Positions 741 to 24,900 of a stretch of DNA of 29,514 nt are shown piece by piece. This stretch comes from Catajapyx aquilonaris (Eukaryota): assembly GCA_000934665.2 (NCBI GenBank), contig KZ538094.1, positions 124,001 through 153,514 on the forward strand. Reading direction: 5' to 3'. Each line of letters opens with the position of its first letter. Position 1 is the stretch's first letter. The position numbers and the translations under genes are program-made. Below the pieces are notes generated by a model. It was not told the DNA's origin and made no database searches. It saw only the letters and a list, made by a program, of their open reading frames with translations.

Positions 741-1001
741 ATGGTTCTACGCTTTGTCTTGCGCTACTTGTTGAACAACGAGCAGCTGATTGAGCGATTG
801 TCCCAGTCATACCCAATCAGACGAGCAGCGCAGTTGGTGTTCTACTTTTACTCTAAAGGACGATCTATTGGTGCTGAAGGAATCAGTAAGAGTGCTGAGG
901 AAAGCAATAGACAGATACAGGACATAGCATCTCGCTTCAAGGAAGAGCTGAAGAAGGGTGTTCAGGAATTCCATGAGGAGATGAAAAAGAAGTCAAAGTA
1001 G
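741..1001 (+). CDS. NCBP2AS2: NCBP2-AS2 family small protein (86 aa), intronless
   Basis: MVLRFVLRYLLNNEQLIERLSQSYPIRRAAQL matches the recalled N-terminal motif of human NCBP2AS2 (MVLRRLL...QLVERLSESRPIRRAAQL), and a C-terminal F.EEL..G motif is present. Good start context AGGATGG. Confidence 0.9.
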   Translation: MVLRFVLRYLLNNEQLIERLSQSYPIRRAAQLVFYFYSKGRSIGAEGISKSAEESNRQIQDIASRFKEELKKGVQEFHEEMKKKSK

Positions 1002-1003
1002 AC

Positions 1004-1684
1004 ATGGTGGGTCGCAACTCAATGGCCGTGATTTTTGTGGGCGATGAGGGCTACTCTATGCTGGATAATCCAAGGCTGCGCAAATCATGGCGGGGGATTC
1101 TTCGTGCACTTCTCCATGTGCCGATGGAAGATGTTCCAGGCCGCCTTCTTCTCTCGCTGGCCCCACCCGTGGTGAGGCTACGTTTTAAGAAGATTCATGT
1201 TGACTTGGTGGGCCCAATGATAGTCCTCATGTTGCTCGCCACGGTCCTTGCCTTTGGCCAGCTCACTTCTGGGAAGTGCAGGTCTCCCGTGACTGCTTTC
1301 GGAGGGGCGATCATTGTGGGCACGTCCTACCTGACCATTGCTCCCACTGTTGCTTTCGCTGTCTGCAGGCTGTGTAAAACTGCAATCAATTTCCCTCAGC
1401 TCATCTCGCTCTTTGGATATGGCCTGTTTGGTCATGTGCTAAGTCTAGCGTTGGGGCTGGTGTTCCGAGGCGAGGATGACCATGGGTCATTTTTTCTGTT
1501 CATGACCATTTTTGGTGGAGCTGCCACTGCCAGACTGGCTCTTGTGCTCCTGGCTCGAACACCAAAACCAGCTGCCAGACTTCTTTTGTGTGCTTCTGTA
1601 GCAGTAGCACACCTTCTCTTTCTCCTCCATTTGTACATCTCATGTTTGAGACGGACGGTCCGCAAATCGACGATGGAGGAGTAA
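1004..1684 (+). CDS. YIPF3: YIP1-family Golgi membrane protein, YIPF3-like (226 aa), intronless
   Basis: The motifs ILRALLHV..EDV..RLLLSLAP, DLVGPMIVLMLLATVL, QLISLFGYGLFGHVL, FGGAATARLALVLLART and RLLLCASVAVAHLLFLLHL are collinear with YIPF3 (ILRPYFDVEP..V..RLLES, ELYGPLMLV, LLGYGLFGH, GGLSTLRM..VL.SRT, RLLLC....LHMLFLLYL). About five hydrophobic segments. Confidence 0.88.
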   Translation: MVGRNSMAVIFVGDEGYSMLDNPRLRKSWRGILRALLHVPMEDVPGRLLLSLAPPVVRLRFKKIHVDLVGPMIVLMLLATVLAFGQLTSGKCRSPVTAFGGAIIVGTSYLTIAPTVAFAVCRLCKTAINFPQLISLFGYGLFGHVLSLALGLVFRGEDDHGSFFLFMTIFGGAATARLALVLLARTPKPAARLLLCASVAVAHLLFLLHLYISCLRRTVRKSTMEE

Positions 1685-5859: not shown

Positions 5860-6028
5860 TTAAACACATCCGTACATCACGTACGTATGAAAAAACGAGA
5901 ATGGTAACAGCATTGAATGGAACTCAACACGGATAACTAATTGGGCTAATCCCTTCTAGAGGTCCTACTGACTGAGGGATCCAAAACAACAAGGAGGGAT
6001 CTAATGAGGAGATCCAGTCAGAGCATCA

Positions 6029-8943
6029 TCAGAGGAAGTAGAGGGTGTCGCTGAGGTGTTCGTGCACGTTGGAGTGGATGTACTCCCCGACGAGGTAGGC
6101 CAGCTTGTGGGCGTACTGGCAGGGGGCAGGGACACGGACGGTGCTGCTCCAGTTGAAATAGAGGTGGCACATCTTGTAGGTGAGGCGCTGGATCTTGTCA
6201 GGCCCCAGGTTCAAGGTGTCGTGGATGATGGAGTAGCTGGTGGGGGCCACCGTGCCCTGCCTGACAGACTGGGAGATGAGATAGAAGTCAAACCTCTCTG
6301 GAAGCGTGATGTCGTCGTCCACTATGGTCCCTGGAAAGGGGTTGCCTGCCTGGGCTGTCATGATCCTCGTGTTCAGCCTCTTGTTCACTATCACGAAGCC
6401 AAACTTGCACTCTTGCTCAGAGGGGCCGTACATCCTGCTCAGGGCTGCCAGGATCTGGGCCAGCTCGTTGTCGCGGACGTAGCCAACCTGAAACACCAAA
6501 CAGAAAGAAGTAAGCCTCTGTAACCTCAGAGAGACATGCAAAACTGGTGGTCAGCATATACTGTACCTGGCCTTCTCCAACGCCACTCCTGTATAAGATG
6601 ACATGGCTGGGTAGCCTTCCGTTGGCCTGCTTGTACTTCTGGAGGGCCTGGACCATGTTGTTGGAGATAAAGTTGGGGACTTCCTCTTGGTGCGAGTGGA
6701 TGGCCACTATGCTGCAGTAGCGGGTGAAGATGGTGTTCATGGAGGCCACCAGGGCTCCCACCGAGGTCCCCTTCTGGGCCGTGTTGTGGTAGACGTCGAA
6801 GCCCACCATCATGCAGTTCTTCAGGGGGATGTCTGCGGACCAGGGCTCCCCTCCCAGCTTGCAGTTGATCTGGATGGCAATCTTGGTGGCGATGGACACC
6901 AGGCCCTTAGAGGAGAGGGTCCGGGCCACCACCACCTGGGAGGCTATCCCCTGCTCCACGTAGCACCTCTTCTTGACCGCCCCGTACACGTCCTTCCTGT
7001 TGGTGGCCAGCACCACCATCACCATCTGGGGGTTGCACTGGACGCAGGCCTCGTCTATGGCCCTGATATAGTTCTGCGGCCTCACATCCGGAAGGAACTC
7101 CACCAGAGGGTAGGCCATGGGCATGCTCATCCCGGAGGCCGCGTCGTGCAAGGTCCTGAGGAAGGGGACCAGCTCTGCCGTGTTGCGGGCAGGGGCGATG
7201 ACGACCCAGTTGTGCAGGTTGACCACCTTGAGCATGGAGCTCCTCCTTAGGGTGCTGGTCCAGTCCGCCTGGATCCCTCCGTTGACCCTCCTGTCCTGTC
7301 CCAGCACGATGGTCTCTGGTTCCAGCTGGCGACCACTGAGCTTCATCAGGTGGTCTCCAAAGTCTAGATCCAGCTTGGCCAGCTCCTCCATGCAACGGGG
7401 CTCGCTGTGAATGCGGCTCATGAACCTCTGGAGAACCCGGACCTTCTTGTCCGGGGTCTGGTGGGTGTGCTGCCCCATGGCCCTCATCAGCTTGGAGTTC
7501 TCCCTCATGGACTGGTCCAGCCCCGTCATGAAGCACAGCTCGGGCACCAGGTAGACGCACTCCACCTCCCCCCTGTGGACGTCCTTCTTCCTCGGCCTGG
7601 ACACCAGCAGGGGCTGCCCCATCTCCGTCACCCTCTCGTTGTAGCGGCTGAAGTAATAGTCCACGTACGTGGTGGCCTTGTTGTCCCTCATCATGAACAT
7701 GTCCGCGGGGCACTTTTCCCAGTCGATGTCGTCAATTCTGTACGTCTTGGAGTTGTACTTGGTCATGACGATGGTCCCCAAGAGGGCCTCTGCCGCCAGC
7801 TTCTGGTAGTTGTTCCTGTCCCTGTTGTACAGGGTGTGCAGCTGCTTGAGGACCGTGTCCCTCCTGAGCACCTTGTGGTGGATCTCTGCGCAGAGCAAGA
7901 GCTGGTTCTCGTGCTGGCGGATGGAGGTCAGGTATCCGGGCCATATCTCCAGGTCGAACTCTGGTATGGAGATGGAGGCGTGCCGGTCGTAGTAGTGCCT
8001 CTGGACCATCTCCAGCTGGAGGTGGGACATGGTCTTCCGCAGGAGGATGTTGAACACCTGCAGGTACATGTGGTCCGAGGGCTTGACCTCCCCTACCAGG
8101 CGGACCTTCACCTTCACCTTGGCCTTGTCCATGGCCCTCTCCACCGTGGTCTCCAGCTTCCCTCCCTCCAGCCTGCGGGTCATGTACAGCATGCTGCTCC
8201 CGTCATAGATGAAGTGCCCTCCAATCACTTCCTCGAAGTTGTGCAGCAGCCCCTTCCGGATACCCACCCTGTCCTCGTCCGGCTCAAAGTCCACTCGGTA
8301 CTGGATCAGGGTCCATTCTGCCCTCTTGGTCACCTCGAAGTAGTTGGCGATCAGGTTGGTGGGTCTCCCAGCCGTCCCCTTCTTGGTGTTGGCCGCGCTC
8401 TCTGGCCTGGTGCACACCACTGTCTCCTCTCTCTGCTGGATGTCCCTGCTCCTGCGGGCCAGGGCTGATGACCGGCTCCCACCTCGACCCACCAGGACCT
8501 CCTCTCCAGGGGCATGAAGACCCTCATCTGCAACAAACAACAACATTTATTGTCTTGTTATAAATTATTCTGTCTCTAGCTGCAATGTCCAAAAGGGACT
8601 GACCTTCGGGAACATCATCTCCACCATTTCCCTTCTTGAGCTCCATCCTACGGAGTGATTCGGTGACTGCCTCCACTCCACCAGGGTTAATATGGTCCTT
8701 GGAGGGCACCAACAGTGACCTCCCCCTTCCCATGATGAAGCCAGGAGTCACGGTGTCCCGCTGCACACCACTGGATGGTACTGGAGCACCTCCTCCTCCA
8801 AGTGGTGGTGGGGGGCAAGCAGCACCAGCACCAGAAGCACCAGGCCGCCGTGAAGGACCCTCCTCCAAGAAGGGACGGCCCCTGCACCTGCCCCTGGCCC
8901 TGCCCAAGGCTCGAGCTGTCTCAGCGGGAGGGTTATTGTCCAT
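6029..8943 (-). CDS. piwi: PIWI-clade Argonaute (Piwi/Aubergine-like), about 919 aa; coding exons 8943-8604, 8527-6567, 6487-6029
   Basis: N-terminal GRARGRCRGR / GRGR repeats, PAZ (TKYNSKTYRIDDIDW...YVDYY...QPLLVS...LVPELC), MID (Y..VKK...SQ...KIAIQINCKLGG) and PIWI (VGFDVYH...HQEE...YRSGVGEGQ...FYLISQSVRQGTVAPTSY...CHLYFNW..TVRVPAPCQYAHKLA...LYFL*). Introns of 76 nt (GTCAGT..CAG) and 79 nt (GTACAG..CAG) keep the frame. A probable acceptor at 8962-8960 implies an upstream non-coding exon. piwi versus aub orthology is not resolved. Confidence 0.96.
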
Positions 8944-9849
8944 CGTGCTGCCAACCTTTCTGCAACATGATAAATGCAATTTGTCAACCAAGATGCTAAG
9001 CATTGGTGGAGGGAGACACTAGAACCATCCAAGTTGTCATAGTCAATGCAATTTTATCATAAAATCTGAACCCACCTATCTTCATGAAAATAATATTCAT
9101 TGCGCCTTTTGTCTGATGTGATTAATGTGCATAATCTGTATTGTGTTAATATATTTTATTTATTTTATTTCGTACCCCATTGGGCTGTACAAGCCTTTAG
9201 GGGGTATTGTGTTAATATAAAGAATGTGACACTCCACCTACATGCCTCAAATCAAAATAACAGACACATTTCCCGACAACCATTATATTGGCACTGTGAT
9301 TCCGAGTAAACAAACTGTTCCACAGTAGTCGGCGGGATAAACAAATTCTCCCCATTCCAGCAACTAATAACCCACAAGTCCTCCTCCCAATAAAAAAAAT
9401 GCCCCAAATTTCACAACACTCGCCCATTGAAATGCAGTGATGCAAAGCCTACTTCGAATACAAAACAAATCATATACCTTTCGTGAATAACTACAATGGA
9501 CGCTTGGCCTCCTCCAGACACTCTGATGTCGACCTCCCTCCTAGTGTAATTTGGGATGTCGTGGGCCAATAATTCCCCCCCCCCNCCCCCCCCCTCCCAC
9601 TCCCACCTTGGTTGAGAAACCAATGACAATGTAGCCAACCTCCATTGTTTGGAACACTCCCCCCGTTGCCAAGGGAGACCGTTGCAACGAACAGGATGGA
9701 TCAACAAACAATGGTTCCATTTTTGACAATGATGGCCACGACTCGTCTCCCTTTGTCACGTAGGAAACCTAACCAGGACCACACAATAGTCGACGACACC
9801 AGTCGGTCGGCCTGGCCCCGAAATAATTGGCATTAAATCATACGTCCAA

Positions 9850-12130: not shown

Positions 12131-12339
12131 GTAAAGTCGTTTCGTCAGAAAAAGGAGGGACTCACACAAACACGTCTCAATTTGAGTAACCATAGTAACC
12201 ACACCACGTATTACAAAAGTAGTTTTCATGCATCCCAGGAGCAACACAAACCCTCTTTCTTGATGGAAGACTGCCGTAAAATGGTTACCATGGTGGTCAA
12301 TATAGTTACTCAGAATTTGACGCGTGTATGACGAGCCAC

Positions 12340-13688
12340 AAATCCTCGTTTTCTGGTGGAACGACGCATCTACGGCGCTAAGTGTATTGGCAAACTTCTG
12401 GAGAGAAACGCAAATGTCAGCACGTCAGGAAAGGACAAGAACGCACCATTGCACGTGGCTGTGGAGAAAGACAACGAACCCATGGTGCAGCTCCTGGTGT
12501 CCTTCGGAGCTGATGTGAACGCCAAGAACAAGTTCGGACACACCAGTTTGCATCTGGCTGGACACTCTTCATCAATCGCTTTGAAGCTGATCTGGGCTGA
12601 AGGGAACGTCCACTCGCTGGACAAGTTCGGACGAACTCCGTTGCACCACGCCAAAGATATTGAGATGGTGTTGACGTTGGTCAGAAACGGAGCAGTAGTC
12701 AACGCAAAGGACGGTAAGAAGAGGACACCACTGCATCTGGCGGACAATGCAGAAGGGACGAAAGCACTGATTGAGTCCAAAGCGGACGTTGCTGCATGGG
12801 ACGACAATGGGAGGACACCACTGCATATCACCAAAAGTGACGGTAGCCTACTGTACTGTAAGCACACAGCTGAACTGCCAGAAATTGTTTCAAAATAATT
12901 TACAGGTGTGGCCAAGGTTCTGATTGTCAGCAGTGCAGACATCCACTCGTGTAACGACCGTGGAAGGATGCCTCTGGACATAGCAAGTCTGGAGGACACG
13001 ACTCCGTGGTCAGGTACCTGGTTCCAAACCGGTGCGGAGGGTCAACTGCAGAGATGGAGACAGATGCACTCCGCTGCATCTGGCTAAGAATAAGTCAACT
13101 GCAGAGATCCTAATTTGCAGAGGGGCTTCGGTCAACGCACAGGACAGAAAAAGTGCGACTCCTTTAATCCATGTGGTCATGTCCAACAATAAGGAGACTC
13201 GTCCACAGTACCTCCTCAGAGAAGGTGATCTGAGAGGTATCAAGTGTAGCGACAATGGAACCACCGCGATACACGAGGCGGTCGAGAACAAGGATGCCGA
13301 CATGCTGAGGATGCTCATGTCCCACGGAGGTACCAGTCTGATTCAGAATACCGGTTCACATGGCGGCCAAGTCCGGCGAGAATGCGTTGTTGCAGGGTCT
13401 TCTGAACAACAGACACAACAGCCAGTCGCTGAACATGGTCAACGAAATGGGGAGGGCACCTTTTCATCTGGTTGTTATGGGAGGACATCGAGACAGCTTC
13501 GAAACACTGGCTGATCGAGAGAGGTATACATGGTGAAAGACCATGAGGGAAACACACCACTGCATCTGGCATCAAAGAACAACCAGCTAGAGACTGTTCG
13601 GGATCTGCTCATTAGAGGTGTAAAGGACGTGCCAAACGATGACGGCTACACTGCTTTGCACTTAGCTGTACAGGCAGGACACCAGGTT
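12340..13688 (+). pseudogene. Disrupted ankyrin-repeat array (more than 10 repeats)
   Basis: Repeated ANK consensus (KNAPLHVAV, GADVNAKNKFGHTSLHLA, GRTPLHHA, KRTPLHLA, RCTPLHLA, GTTAIHEAV, GNTPLHLAS, GYTALHLAV) split over ORFs 12356-12898, 13032-13514 and 13530-13733 by stops and frameshifts. Confidence 0.85.
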
Positions 13689-18943: not shown

Positions 18944-21900
18944 TCACAGCCCTGTGTACTGTGGTGAAGAACTGCTCCAACTGCTAGAATTGGATGATGA
19001 TGCAAACCTAGAAAATGGGTTGCGTGGGCTTGTCCTCCTCCTGTTAATACTACCATCCTTCGTATGTGCCACCTCCCTGCGAAGAAATCCATTTTCCAAT
19101 GTCAGAGGTGGGGAAAAAAAAAATGCTGCAGGGGCATTTATACCGTTAATAATAATTAAAGACATTCCAAATATGCATGCCATGTACTGCACCCACATTT
19201 TTGGCCTACTGTGCAATTTCAGGATTTCTTGTTATTATTAACATTGTAGATGTGACCCTTATGATAGTGATTGTGTCCGACTTATGATCTGGTTCATTGT
19301 GTTCATAAAGTCTGCCTCCTTCATGCTGGCAGAGGGGACATGGGTCTCACTATCAAAATCAAAGGCTAGAAAAACAAATTGTGAGCAGGTTGGTCGTCGA
19401 GGTGGTTTAGCCATCAACCACGTTTAAATATACTCTACAGAAACTTCTGACCTCTCATTTATACCATGTAATGAATTTTGATGCAAGCATTGTAATGCTG
19501 CTGGGCTTACCCAAAAAAGGGGAGACATGTGATAAGCAACTCCTTGCTGGGGTTGCTCACCAACTCGGAATTATTCTGAACTAGATGGTTCACAATGCAG
19601 CGGATATAGTGCTGTAACCTCTTGCGCCGCTCTTCCACAAATCGAGCGTCCTGCAGGTTAAAGTGTTCAACAGTTATATGATGTTGACTTCATGCACCAG
19701 CCTATAACAAGCAGCCAAGTGGCTCAGAATTCCTCACAAAGGCAGGTAAATTGGAACACCATGCATATTATTTTTCAAGGAGAAGCTCGCTGACTCAAGC
19801 AAAGTTGAGTCAATGATGAGGGTAATGTTGCATCGCATGAAATAATTATGGTAACTGTACCCATCATCTCTCTCTCTCTCTCCCTCTCTCCCCCTCCCTC
19901 TCTATATCTCTCTCTATGCATACTCTATCTGAGGTATGGTGTGTTGGTTGGTTGGGTTGTGTGGGAGCAAGTCAGGGCCCAAGACTGCAGTGACAGATGG
20001 GTAGAAATAGAATGGAGAAAATAGTTCCCTGCACATGAAAGGTGACAGTATTGAGCCAGATGGTCTGACTGAACAATGTCAGACATGATTCTAACCACAC
20101 TCTGAATGCTTTACGATGTAACAGGACCCAGAGTTTCACAATTCCTCTGTGTATATGCATCAACTGCTTTTGTTATATCAGTCATCATGTGCCCATACAT
20201 TAAGGTTTACCACACCCATGTTTACATACATTATGAATAGCAATTCAGGGGGGGTCAGGCTAGGAAGGGAAAAGGTGTGGGGGTTGATGTTTGCGGACGA
20301 TATGGTGGTGGTGGCAGAAGAAAGAGAACAGTTAAGTGTTATGGTGAAACAGATAGAAGCATATTTGAAGAAAAACGATTTAGAGTTGAATGCGGGAAAG
20401 ACGAAAATCATGGTATTTAGGAATGGAGGGAAAAGGTCCAAAAGGGACGGATGGTTTTGGAAAGGGGAAGAGATAGAAGTGGTCAACAAATACAAATACT
20501 TAGGATATTGGTTTACAACAAAGGGGGGGATACAGGAACATATCAAGGCACAAAGACAGAAGGCATGGAGAGGGTTGCACAGGGTCAGGAGGATATGCAG
20601 GCAACAAAAAATTGAACAGTGGGGTTTGGTGAAGGCATTATATGGAAGCATGGTGAGAACAATCATACTGCTGGGAGCCGAGGTGTGGGCGTGGAAGGTG
20701 GGACGAGCAATGGAGAGTGTGCAGTTGGGGTTCCTCAAGAGGTGGCTCGGAGTGGCCCAGAATACTCCGGGGTACATTGTGCTGACAGAGACAGGGATGA
20801 TGGAGGTGGAAGTGGCGGCATTAGAAAGGGCAGTTAGGTGGATCATGAAGATGGAAAGGTTAGGGGAAGACAGACTGTTGCGAAGGATATGGGATGAGAT
20901 GAAGAAGGAAAGGGAGGGAGGTAGTAAAAATGGCTGGTGGGAAGACGTGAGGAAGAAGGAACAAGAATGGGAGGTGGAGCATGATGAGGAGTGGCAAAGG
21001 CAAACTTGGGAAGAACGATGGGACTCGTGGGGGAAGGAACTGAGGGAGAGGATGATCAAGGAGAGGGAGGAGAGAATTGCCAACACGACCAACTGGCCCG
21101 ACTACAGATCTGTAAAGATAGAGAGAGAAGAAGACCGATATTTGGACAGAGAGAACATAAAATTTCTGAAGGTGTTGGCGAAACTAAGATGTGGGACACT
21201 GTGCAGGGCTAGCTGGTCGTGGCTGTCAGAAACGGAGAGGAACTGTTTATTGTGTGATGAGGGGGAGGAGAATATGGGGCATATTGTGAGGGATTGTAGG
21301 GTAATGAAGGAGGAGAGGAGGAAATGGATACCGGCGGTGGAGGAGATGGAGGACGAGGAGGTGTATAGCTTTGTAAAGAATGTAAGAAAAAGGGGTGCGC
21401 TGTGTAAGTATTTGTATGGTGTGGTGAAAAAGAGGAGGGATGCAATTTTGGAGAGACAGGGGGAGGGAGTGAGAGAAAATGGAATTATGTAAAAAAATGT
21501 AAATGTAGAATGTAGAATGTCGATAAATGTAAATGTAATCATGTGAGGAAGGAGGAGGGTCGGCCAAGCGGCATTAGCTGCAGGCCGACAGACTAAATAA
21601 AGCACAAAACAAACAAACAAAAACACACCCATGTTTTCATCCCATCTATAAATGTACCCTTATCATTAATAGCAATGATGTTAGTGGAGTATTATCACTT
21701 CTAAATGAAGGTAGCAGGTACTTCACCTTACCTTATTTCCAATAGTTTTCTTTGGCGGGAAATCAAATGTGTTGACCACTGGATCTTTCTTCTTCAGTTC
21801 TTTGTGCAGTGAATAAAATTGCGAATATCGCCTATAGACATTCCATTCATCGTCACGTATCCTCACAAAGACCTGCAGAATTACACAAAGTTACGAAGCG

Positions 21901-24900
21901 TAGTGGATATTTCATGTAAAGATTCTGCTCACTTGGTACACGTGGTGCACATCAGAGGAGCCTCCAGTCAAAAATGCAGATGGTATCCACAGGTTAATGA
22001 GGGCTCTGGTGGATATGGCTAGTGAACTTGTGTCGTAGTCACTGGTTACACTGACAGCATCATCATCTGATGTTTGGCCTTCGTCTGGCAGAGGCCCTCG
22101 AAGATCCACTAGTTCCTCACGAAGACGACGCAGGGCACCATCCTTTGCTTGTAGAAGACGCTGCAGCCTCTCATTAAATTCCATCAATTCACCGTGCATC
22201 TCGGCCACCTGTATCAGCTTCTTCTCATACTCAGTGGCTTCATAGTGGTAGTCAATGAATGCACCATCTCCATGCCTGTTAGCTTGCTCTAAGGATGCCA
22301 AAGTTTCATGTGCCTGACTTCCATCCCGGCGGAGCATTTGCACTGCACCCACATACTTCCTCAACTGATGCTTCAAAAGTTCGTTTTCCCTGCAGTGCAA
22401 CACAAGGATACATTTTAGATATTTTTTCCCATGAAAATTGTGTGTAAATATGGCCTAGTGTTGTGCAACTGCAAAGAAAGAAATCACTGATTCTGTCAGA
22501 TTGTGTACAGTGGCGGAAATTAATGTCTGCCCCTGGCAGAGATTATTCTTTGCTTCATCTGGCACCCCATGGCGCAGCACCAGTTCAAACAGGCAAAAGT
22601 CCAGATAAGACAGCTGCTGCTGGATTAATGACAATTATTGCGGTCGTACATTTGAACAAGTACATGGATGTTGAGTCTGCCAATTATTATTAATATAGAT
22701 AATGCCTCGTTGTAAGGGTGTTTAGGAGATTGTTTAAAACCTCTCTAAATGTCACTTTATTCATCACGTCACTTCTTCATTGAGAACAAAATTACCTAAT
22801 GATGGGGAAGAAGTTGGGTGAGTGGGTGAGGATAATTGCTAGGCACTAAATCCCGGTTCTAAGAAGGGTTATCAAACGATTCTCACTGGAATTGTTGCGG
22901 CAGAGTTTCAGTGCGAAAGGCAGTCGTGAGCGAGAATTGTCGTGCAAGAAAAACACCCCAAGAACGCAACATACCACAACGTTTCTTTTGAATGGCCAGC
23001 CTCAACTTCTGTAATGCCTCACAATAAACCTTTGGGTTGAAAAAATGTAGTGGCATGTTGAGTTCTGTGGTGTTTTTCTTGTGCAACAATTCTTGCCCCC
23101 CACTGCCTTTCGCACTGAAACTCTGCCACAACAATTCAAGTGAGAATTGTTCAATCACCCTTCTTAGGCTATTTTCACAAGAGGCTGCCATGGCAGCATT
23201 GCCAAGGCAGCGCTGCCAGGTCTTTGCATTGCTGTAAGTGGAGCCTTTCACACGTGGTGGTTGGCAGCGTTTCTTCTATTACTTGCCCAACACCAGTGAA
23301 GTTCGCCTAGCACGAAAATCACCTGCATGTCGATGTTACAAATATGAATTACTTGAGAATGAATCATGTTTTAATCGCACAACTTATATGCTAATGAGCC
23401 TCATGGAAGAGCAATGTTGGGGCGAGATATCAATGCATTTGTCAGTGGAACAAGAAGAATAGGACAGAATTTATTTAGCGCGCCAGGGGCAATGGAGTTC
23501 GCCCAGAGCGCTAAACGCGCCACAAAGTTCGCCCACTGTTAAATACAGACTTTTACGGTGCCAGATGAAAAAAAAGTGCAGGTCTTTTGCCCTGCACCAT
23601 AATGCCATTACTCATTGCACTTGGTGTCTGAAAATAACAATCACAGGAGGTGGTAAGCCCATTCCTCCAGAGGTACACAAGGTGAAATGGAAGAGCTCTG
23701 AAGAAGGAAAGTCTGCTTATGTGGTTGCTCAAGAAGGGCATGTGCCATGCTCAATGGCTAGGGGCATCACATGAAGTAACAAAACTACAAGAATCATTCA
23801 GAAAAACCTTATTATGGACGTCACCAGGCAACAGCAGCAAGGAAAAACCGAGAGATGAGAAAAATGTGTCGCAATATCAGCGAAAGGAGCAGCGACCATC
23901 AATTTCAAAATGGTCAGATGAGACCCAAAAGGTGGTCCACACAACCTGTCGACTCTGCATCCATGACATGAAGTTGAACTTTTATGTGTAACTTCTCAAA
24001 GACTAACGGGGAATTCATGAAATCAGGACCTGCCCTCTAGACAATAGGCCAAGAAGAAACCACCCTTAAAGAGTTAAAGGTACTGGAACAGGAAAAAGAC
24101 TTGCTTGGGAGAAGGGATGGAAGCATTGGGCACATCAGATGTGGTATAGTCATGTTTCACGATGAATGAGTCAGTACAGGGACATCCATAATCGAGTACT
24201 GCAAACAAAGAAGAGGCGTGCCATCCCAATGTCTCACTAGAACCGTCAAACATGCACACAGCATTATGGTGCGGGGATGCATGGGTAGTGTTGGCCTTGG
24301 AAACTTTCCCAGCATCAATGGCACCATCGATACAAGCATGTTTCAGGAGATTTTGAGAGTCCATCCGCTGTGTGCGTCCTCAACAGCAACCTTACATCCG
24401 AATATCAACGCAATATTTCAACAGGACTTTGCATCTGACCAAAACAGCAGAAGCAAGTGGCTGGCAGACAAGGGGATTGACATTTTACGTGGCCATCGAG
24501 CAGCCTGGACCTCAATCCGATTGAGACAGACTGGAAAATCATGAAGAAGGTACTTTAGAGGAATCATCTTTGCACCAAGGCATCCCTTGAGGGCCAAACT
24601 ACGGGAGGTTCGGGACACCATCACTCCAGCCGAGTGCCAGAGCTCATTCAACACATGTCGTGTTGTGTGGAGGCCGTCATTGCTGCCCATGGCGATGCCA
24701 CCTGCTTCTAGGCAAACTTTGTGGCGCGTTTAGCGCTCTGGGCGAACTTCATTGCCCCTGGCGCACTAAATAAATACTGTCCTATTCATCTTGTTCCACT
24801 GACAAATGCATTGATATCTCGCCCCAACATTGCTCTTCCATGAGTCTCATTAGCATATAAGTTGTGCGATTAAAACATGATTCATTCTCAAGTAATTCGT

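Follow-up and report, generated by a model that had tools for sequence, protein, structure and literature searches.

In a PIWI gene of the hexapod Catajapyx aquilonaris, serine stands where the third residue of the catalytic tetrad should be aspartate. Is this a working gene whose protein binds guide RNA and no longer slices, a copy on its way to decay, or an error of the assembly? The window analysed here, 29,514 nucleotides of contig KZ538094.1, had been described from its letters alone in a first-pass annotation as holding an intact, guide-binding and slicer-dead PIWI paralogue. We confirmed the observation itself, and the interpretation built on it was partly supported.

Gene structure and family placement

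The gene lies at 8943-6029 on the minus strand and consists of three exons with 919 codons. Its parts are as follows.

8604..8943, minus strand: coding exon 1, with ATG at 8943-8941 and a phase 1 end before the GT, spliced frame checked; disordered N-terminus with RG/GR/AR motifs
8528..8603, minus strand: intron 1, 76 nt, GT..AG; spanned by an alignment with a related contig that has non-triplet indels
6567..8527, minus strand: coding exon 2, 1961 nt, open frame; ArgoN, PAZ, MID and the first half of the PIWI domain
8366-8061, minus strand: ArgoN (Pfam 2.9e-11)
7841-7458, minus strand: PAZ (Pfam 3.1e-32)
7022-6567, minus strand: first half of the PIWI domain (Pfam Piwi 1.5e-35, exon 2)
6488..6566, minus strand: intron 2, 79 nt, GT..AG, directly 3' of GVGEGQ; with 6567 joined to 6487 the frame continues and the Piwi profile is complete
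6029..6487, minus strand: coding exon 3, with stop TGA at 6031-6029; second half of the PIWI domain at 6475-6074 (Pfam Piwi 5.4e-41, profile positions 167-302)

The domain order is N, PAZ, MID, PIWI, with Pfam ArgoN, PAZ and Piwi found on exon 2 and the rest of Piwi on exon 3; a Pfam search of exon 1 gave no family. The RG/GR/AR motifs lie at residues 10-22, 72-75 and 127, and the protein ends in LYFL, so that the PAZ domain, RG motifs and C-terminus named in the first-pass annotation were all found. After splicing, the 919 codons contain zero stops and zero frameshifts, and the start, the stop and both splice-site pairs are intact. The open reading frame had also been called intact; this is true once introns 8603-8528 and 6566-6488 are removed, and the span given for it, 6029-6800, is only the C-terminal quarter of the gene.

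A processed retrocopy or pseudogene was rejected on the two GT..AG introns, the lack of any stop or frameshift, and a search for direct or inverted flanking repeats of at least 18 nt marking a transposon or retrocopy, which found none around the gene. Partial intron loss through a cDNA intermediate may have taken place; among the titles listed in a search of the literature on insect Piwi retrogenes, none was relevant. The GC3 of the gene is 0.83. Long antisense ORFs lie inside it on the plus strand (7368-8468, 6615-7250 and 6008-6523) and match no Pfam family; we took them as a by-product of the high G+C content. An SNX29 exon neighbours the gene in the window and assigns the host to the hexapods, single N's occur within homopolymer runs at 9585 and 18295, and Rfam and tRNA scans of the window gave no matches.

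Among solved structures, the best relative is the slicing Aub/Siwi-type protein Siwi of Bombyx mori (PDB 5GUH; 576 bits over residues 15-653 of exon 2), with fly Piwi at 434 bits, PIWIL1 at 428 and human AGO2 at about 60. By these similarity scores the gene is placed in the PIWI clade (Aub/Siwi/Piwi subclade), closer to it than to the AGO clade. Proteins of this subclade are characterised by germline expression and by piRNAs of 24-31 nt as guides. The named proteins among the best 120 database matches are all from insects, and most bear the names Siwi, Aub or Piwi. The window protein shares only 41-48% identity with insect Siwi/Aub proteins, which among each other reach 44-71%. In a tree of 33 rows, made of the window protein and 32 of the best 120 homologues picked for taxon spread, the window protein has the longest terminal branch (0.97 versus a median of 0.27) and no well-supported partner among these rows, which contained no dipteran Piwi. 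An exact 24-base scan of metagenome contigs gave no match.

The catalytic tetrad and the guide pocket

We read the tetrad and pocket positions from an alignment of the best 120 full-length homologues. Siwi equivalents of the Asp, Glu and Ser positions were counted by hand along the PDB alignment, with the Siwi tetrad residues as named in the available portion of PMC7015924.

6795..6797, minus strand: codon 691, GAC, Asp, first tetrad residue (GFDVYH; Siwi D670); D in 120 of 120
6681..6683, minus strand: codon 729, GAA, Glu, glutamate finger, second Glu of HQEE (Siwi E708); E in 119 of 120
6585..6587, minus strand: codon 761, AGT, Ser, third tetrad position (Siwi D740); D in 119 of 119 aligned homologues, with 1 gap
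6107..6109, minus strand: codon 894, CAC, His in QYAHKL, fourth tetrad residue (Siwi H874); H in 114, Q in 1 and a gap in 5 of 120
6858..6986, minus strand: 5'-phosphate pocket, Y628 (6986-6984), K632 (6974-6972), Q644 (6938-6936) and K670 (6860-6858); each in 120 of 120

The tetrad is therefore D691, E729, S761 and H894 (DESH) and differs from the DEDH of slicing-competent PIWI proteins, and the Asp, Ser and His codons agree with those first reported. YRSG of the window protein stands opposite YRDG in the PDB alignments with Siwi (5guh), fly Piwi (6kr6) and PIWIL1 (9s0z). H694 and S702, the His and Ser with a supporting role for the glutamate finger (PMC7015924, in part), are retained. A fragment search with the 184 residues around the Ser site gave 33 matches among 67 candidates; the best was 65% identical along 54% of the query sequence, and no near-identical protein was among the 33. 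Seven aligned fragments cover the third tetrad column, and six have Asp and one (P0127) Gly.

The window protein departs from the consensus at 7 of the 130 columns conserved at 95% or more. The six departures other than Asp to Ser are conservative (F/Y, R/H, R/K, W/L, K/R and D/N). The median for the homologues is 1, and this control is biased because the same homologues define the consensus. Since a rate of 7/130 gives a chance of about 1 in 5 of striking one of the four tetrad residues (our own arithmetic), the change, real as it is in the assembly, would not be improbable by itself in a protein this divergent.

The site-B metal depends on the third catalytic residue, according to the sections of PMC10772731 at hand, and the earlier designation of the protein as slicer-dead can be kept as a prediction from such established work. 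Likewise, the pocket residues listed by the first-pass annotation are intact, and together with the domains they suggest that the Ser copy could still bind a guide. An N-terminal nuclear localisation signal is a feature of nuclear, slicer-independent PIWI proteins like that of the fly. Simple patterns, a crude test, picked out no NLS-like basic clusters in the N-terminal 140 residues and only KKVR at residue 474. This result and the signs of relaxed constraint given below lend no support to a role in transcriptional silencing or as a piRNA receiver, as had been proposed.

Related copies in the same organism and constraint on the gene

We compared the gene region with five sequencing runs of the same organism from two studies, as contigs rather than raw reads. 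In run X1, 58 contigs aligned to it, 15 of them at least 99% alike, 16 at 95-99% and 27 at 90-95%; up to 4 (X1) or 6 (X2) distinct contigs lie over place 7495. Contigs identical to the window were found at 8684-8878 and 8857-9029. Contig depth is about 25 for the window-identical pieces and about 100 for the variant, values not taken as copy number. Asp is found in one related form, some 96-97% alike, whose loose end reads LYRDGVGEGQ (GAT) on the minus strand and which is the only form seen bridging 6489-6597. The several related forms bear out the term paralogue; the Asp form itself may be a paralogue or a commoner allele of the same locus, and the contigs fit either. Its differences from the window are concentrated in one short stretch.

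6490..6596, minus strand: divergent patch, made up of intron 2 and the final 30 nt of exon 2 (with the Ser codon); the Asp-bearing contig has 108 other letters between 6489 and 6597

Within this patch, 8 of the 30 exon bases differ, compared with about 3.5% elsewhere and no listed difference in the adjoining 72 nt (6597-6668); the cluster has P = 1.4e-5, or 1.3e-3 after 92 windows. The intron is 79 nt long in the window versus about 78 nt in the Asp form. The window's own letters at 6490-6596 were not seen in any aligned contig, and such a coverage hole proves nothing. Over 6542-6648, X2 and X3 have bin depths of 51.0 and 34.2, which equal the expectation from the variant contig starting at 6597 alone (our own arithmetic), and X5 has zero depth over 6435-6755. 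The only contig form joining 6490-6596 carries GAT, and the AGT codon, neither confirmed nor refuted by the contigs, is thus given by the assembly only.

The comparison of the window copy with the Asp form lists 40 differences, 37 of them coding, and 97 more are unlisted. Among the 37, 17 are synonymous and 20 are not (pN/pS 0.35; neutrality rejected at P = 0.002). For 6597-7342, with 22 of the 24 differences known, 11 are synonymous and 11 are not (pN/pS 0.30, P = 0.005). The neutral evolution that the first-pass annotation had set against its own reading is not what these counts show. Moreover, all six indel events in exons are net multiples of three, and the four non-coding ones are +4, +3, +3 and +1. 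The silent sites have drifted: in 12 of the 17 listed synonymous differences the codon of the window copy ends in A/T and that of the Asp form in G/C, with 0 in the reverse direction (P = 5e-4). At polarisable non-synonymous sites, the derived state is in the window copy at 7 (G882S, S731P, Y718C, M657V, F458S, N650T and R563T) versus 2 in the Asp form (K662Q and R377S). About 3.4% of random changes create a stop, and since a frame would survive 50-97 neutral changes with a chance of 0.17-0.03, its intactness alone is weak evidence. Taken together, the substitution patterns indicate that the frame of the Ser copy is still under purifying selection, relaxed relative to the Asp form.

Explanations of the serine codon and its meaning

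We favour, at a probability of roughly one half, a real PIWI paralogue with an intact pocket, under relaxed constraint and predicted to be inactive as a slicer. A tentative competitor, which we consider possible on less than even terms, is loss of function under way in a young duplicate or a segregating allele, with Asp to Ser as one of several slightly deleterious changes gathered under relaxed constraint; such a copy would have no specific role and be on the way to pseudogenisation. The A/T-ward silent drift, the surplus of derived states, the seven departures at conserved columns and the long terminal branch all agree with decay, and the intact frame says little against it; but pN/pS below neutrality, exon indels kept in frame, intact start, stop and splice sites and the conservative nature of the other six departures speak for a protein that is still maintained. 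It is unlikely, though a multi-copy family of near-identical members invites chimeric assembly, that no single gene has this exact sequence and that the 107-nt Ser patch was misjoined from a more distant family member or is a consensus error. The abrupt cluster of differences in the patch, the Asp version in the bridging contig and the N's in homopolymer runs would fit such an artefact. However, the patch keeps the frame, the GT/AG, the intron length class and the LYR-GVGEGQ residues, and so it is genuine PIWI-family sequence; AGT is two base changes from GAT and therefore not a single miscall; and even a chimera would imply some Ser-bearing family member.

Gene conversion might also have brought in the patch, its donor being a separate and older lineage of Ser-bearing members, a long-lived non-slicing class of Aub/Siwi type beside the slicing ones, which we regard as rather more doubtful. 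We give very little credence to the notion that the protein still slices, with Ser plus water or a nearby carboxylate doing the work of Asp at site B. Retention of H694/S702 and of the other three tetrad residues would agree with it, and the Argonaute literature examined contained no assay of a Ser variant; but D is invariant in the 119 aligned relatives, the site-B metal is lost in the laboratory mutants HsAGO2 D669A and AtAGO10 D795A, and HsAGO4, whose third and fourth tetrad residues are Gly and Arg, is inactive (portions of PMC10772731). These three are AGO-clade or engineered proteins with Gly or Ala at the site, whereas the window protein is PIWI-clade with Ser.

Several known systems resemble the favoured slicer-inactive paralogue. 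The window protein shares with Siwi the N-PAZ-MID-PIWI order, the pocket, the equivalents of D670, E708 and H874, the RG-rich N-terminal tail and the LYFL-type end, and differs in Ser for D740. Drosophila melanogaster Piwi (PDB 6KR6) is likewise of the PIWI clade and naturally lacks an intact tetrad, and it binds piRNA without slicing; its tetrad is DVDK in the available text of PMC7015924, and the DEDK previously given for it was a misstatement. Fly Piwi is changed at residues 2 and 4 and at the support His/Ser (K617 and A625), whereas only residue 3 is changed in the window protein, which keeps H694/S702 and has no NLS-like cluster in its N-terminus by the crude pattern test. Api-Piwi8 of the pea aphid (DDR), a member of a lineage-specific Piwi expansion with predicted slicing loss, has the fourth residue changed from His to Arg after a duplication described as ancient (PMC3230593, in part), whereas the change in the window protein is at residue 3, and Asp persists in a copy that is some 96-97% alike. 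In Acari, PIWI-family duplicates have the non-canonical catalytic residues SRG, SRS or NDH/NDY in place of DDH (PMC7659050, in part). Those chelicerate proteins are changed at several residues and not close in sequence, and none is among the best 120 matches. Slicer-dead Piwi duplicates are already known from flies, aphids and mites, and the Ser copy would be another such case.

We suggest that the hexapod genome carries a lineage-specific family of fast-evolving, intron-poor and very GC3-rich PIWI genes of Aub/Siwi type, in one of which Ser would replace the Asp ligand of the site-B magnesium. The protein is predicted to load a piRNA-like guide and bind targets but, lacking this ligand, not to cleave them. 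As Asp is retained in one or more very similar copies of the same organism, the loss was probably recent or accompanied the replacement of a short stretch of about 107 nt; since selection is relaxed relative to the Asp form, the Ser copy may be an early-stage non-slicing specialist or a duplicate beginning to drift.

We regard the finding as no more than a lead. If the patch did come by conversion, a binder-only PIWI would have arisen outside Diptera, independently of fly Piwi and analogous to it, with only the ligand of the site-B metal lost. Should the Ser copy prove to be expressed and retained, nature would have separated guide binding from slicing by one residue, with a near-identical slicing copy alongside. 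Such a pair could be used to test whether a PIWI that does not cut serves as a platform for target binding, as a piRNA sink or as a ping-pong receiver, and retention would also show how fast duplicated genes of the piRNA pathway can specialise.

Gene structure and catalytic residues

The PIWI-clade Argonaute gene is located on the minus strand from 8943 to 6029, and the span 6029-6800 given by the first-pass annotation covers only its last quarter. The coding exons are as follows.

8943-8604, minus strand: exon 1, without a Pfam family, with GR/RG/AR motifs
8527-6567, minus strand: exon 2, a single 1961-nt exon with Pfam ArgoN, PAZ and Piwi
6487-6029, minus strand: exon 3, stop codon included, with the remaining Piwi profile (Pfam positions 167-302)

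Both introns (76 and 79 nt) are GT..AG, and the spliced exons give 919 codons with no internal stops. The gene forms an island of 57-60% G+C between flanks of 36-45%. GC3 amounts to 0.83 over the whole gene, reaches about 0.95 in the core and drops locally at codons 21-60, 101-130, 501-530 and 751-770; the Ser codon falls in this last stretch. No Pfam family was found in the long antisense ORFs within the gene, and no repeats were found flanking it. Single N's at 9585 and 18295, inside G-rich or C-rich homopolymer-like runs, indicate local assembly uncertainty.

We aligned the spliced protein with its best 120 full-length database homologues and scored the tetrad columns. The third column holds D in 119 of the 120 homologues and a gap in the remaining one; in the assembly the window has Ser761 there (AGT, 6587-6585), as the first-pass annotation had proposed. 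Its other readings of the active site were also borne out: the first Asp (GAC, 6797-6795; D in 120/120), the HQEE glutamate (E in 119/120), the final His (CAC, 6109-6107; H in 114/120, with five gaps and one Q) and the 5'-phosphate pocket Y628, K632, Q644 and K670, each identical in 120/120. In HMMER alignments to solved structures, ILYRSGVGEGQ stands opposite YRDGVG(D)GQ of silkworm Siwi, and YRSG also opposite YRDG of fly Piwi and PIWIL1. Counted along the alignment, the GFDVYH Asp, the second Glu of HQEE and the Ser correspond to D670, E708 and D740, which are named among the Siwi tetrad residues (PMC7015924). The same source describes a His and a Ser that keep the glutamate finger in position in slicing Argonautes (PMC7015924); these support residues are retained as H694 and S702. 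The third position is thus the sole altered catalytic residue.

In P0127, a 224-residue PIWI fragment of a public assembly, the motif is YRGG and the third tetrad residue Gly, which would make it another natural loss of this Asp.

Divergence and family placement

BLASTP identity of the window Piwi to its best 120 matches is just 38-46%, in contrast to a nearby sorting nexin-29 exon (21912-22454, minus strand), which reaches 77-81% to cockroach, termite, stick-insect and orthopteran orthologues. In our own alignment this exon is 74-80% identical to proteins themselves 83-97% alike, with identity dropping to 61-65% for an ostracod and Limulus. This places the host among the hexapods but outside the orders sampled. 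The named proteins among the 120 Piwi matches are all from insects, mostly called Siwi, Aub or Piwi. When aligned with 15 insect proteins, mutually 44-71% alike, the window Piwi shows 41-48% identity. A quick maximum-likelihood tree was built from the window protein and 32 of the 120 homologues, picked for taxon spread (88 left out). In this 33-row tree no end branch is longer than that of the window Piwi (0.97; median 0.27), which pairs with no other sequence at good support. Together with the low identity, this argues that the gene is not the canonical orthologue but an offshoot of the Aub/Siwi group that is lineage-specific and evolves fast.

Some contigs depart from the window at 8040, 8072 and 8195 and carry on as PIWI coding sequence that is recognisably homologous yet further diverged, which therefore represents more distant family members in the same organism; one contig still has Phe, the ancestral residue, at the position of the window's Y221. 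A 960-nt contig of public sequencing run X5 matches the window only at 6836-6872 (37 bases, the IQINCKLGG motif), with other PIWI-like coding sequence on one side and non-coding-looking sequence on the other. The contig appears to carry an exon of a different PIWI-family gene of this organism, one richer in introns, and so hints at intron loss in the window Piwi family.

Other features of the neighbourhood are listed here.

977-1684, plus strand: open frame matching the Yip1 domain weakly (18.4 bits, short of the cut-off)
12332-13514, plus strand: ankyrin repeats in two exons
20122-21492, plus strand: 456-residue open frame in strongly G-over-C-skewed sequence (0.33-0.46), with a reverse-transcriptase domain end and a zf-RVT match; probably a non-LTR retrotransposon truncated at its 5' end

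The ankyrin, Yip1-like and SNX29 neighbours have no evident link to the piRNA pathway.

Related copies and the tract around the Ser codon

Parts of the gene occur in five sequencing runs from two studies under the same organism label, and Logan contigs of four runs were aligned to 5900-9100. Among 58 aligned contigs of run X1, 15 are at least 99% alike to the window, 16 are 95-99% and 27 are 90-95%, and place 7495 has another letter in four X1 and six X2 contigs; several related sequences therefore occur in one sample. Window-identical contigs cover 8684-8878 and 8857-9029. Longer contigs are about 3.3-3.6% off (17 differences/509 nt, 32/897 nt); because their alignment continues through the 3' flank and intron 1, the gene structure of this related form matches that of the window copy.

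In one contig, 6489 and 6597 are linked by 108 letters of other sequence. At the loose end at 6597 the minus-strand reading is LYRDGVGEGQ, with GAT; the contigs fit a paralogue and a commoner allele equally for this Asp form. Eight of 30 exon bases there differ from the window, and the adjoining 72 nt (6597-6668) have no listed differences. With 3.5% as the background rate, the probability of this clustering is P = 1.4e-5 (1.3e-3 once corrected for 92 windows). The Ser codon therefore lies in a short tract, 6490-6596 (intron 2 included), whose history is unlike that of the remaining gene sequence. Possible origins of the tract are gene conversion by a less closely related family member, a burst of changes confined to this place, or a chimera produced by the assembler. 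The window's own letters in 6490-6596 were not seen in the aligned contigs; since a contig gap is no proof of absence, they neither bear out nor contradict the AGT codon.

Selection and interpretation

The substitution test used the 40 listed of 137 single-letter differences between the window and related contigs. The 37 coding ones comprise 17 synonymous and 20 non-synonymous, giving for these listed differences pN/pS = 0.35 over 633 synonymous and 2127 non-synonymous sites; neutrality is rejected at P = 0.002. For 6597-7342, with 22 of 24 differences known, 11 are synonymous and 11 non-synonymous (pN/pS = 0.30, P = 0.005). Each of the six indel events in exons has a net length divisible by three; the four outside coding sequence measure +4, +3, +3 and +1. 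The reading frame has therefore been under purifying selection, which speaks against a duplicate or allele heading for decay. Decay is nevertheless a possible, if secondary, reading, as the window copy looks relaxed relative to the other form. Synonymous differences are A/T-ending in the window and G/C-ending in the other form at 12 of 17, with five neutral and none reversed (P = 5e-4). When the 20 non-synonymous differences were polarised against the 120 homologues, the window was derived at seven conserved sites and the other form at two, the rest being ambiguous. At columns at least 95% conserved the window deviates at 7 of 130 (F221Y, R469H, R475K, W499L, K634R, D695N, D761S); the homologue median is 1, a control biased because the same homologues set the consensus. 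At this rate the odds of striking one of the four tetrad residues are about 1 in 5.

That the Ser-bearing patch is chimeric or erroneous in the assembly we consider unlikely; it would fit the tract's separate history, as would conversion or a local burst. Continued slicing by the window protein is very improbable. The rest of the tetrad and the finger supports are kept, but the third residue coordinates the magnesium at site B, and HsAGO2 D669A and AtAGO10 D795A are described as lacking the site-B metal; HsAGO4 has Gly at this position (PMC10772731). Ser761 would abolish or greatly weaken slicing, and guide loading and target binding may still be possible. The first-pass interpretation of a guide-binding, slicer-dead paralogue is partly supported, by the related copies and the intact pocket, with slicing loss still a prediction.

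The window Piwi is of the same kind as recorded naturally slicer-inactive PIWI duplicates. Fly Piwi, with tetrad DVDK (not DEDK, as first annotated), has been shown to be non-slicing (PMC7015924); pea aphid Api-Piwi8 has DDR (PMC3230593), and several mite and tick Piwi proteins have SRG, SRS or NDH (PMC7659050). Unlike these, the window Piwi has another residue altered and a near-identical Asp-bearing sister form. Our literature search, not designed to prove absence and not covering supplementary alignments, found no report of Ser at the third position. Dipteran Piwi/Aub duplicates are reported to evolve faster directly after duplication (PMC4824172). A crude scan with simple patterns found no basic cluster of nuclear-localisation type in the N-terminal region, and a role in transcriptional silencing or as a piRNA receiver is speculation. 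Our leading reading, with a probability of about 0.5, is that this gene is real, belongs to a Piwi family that is multi-copy and evolves fast, is predicted not to slice, and is itself under constraint that would be relaxed and not absent.
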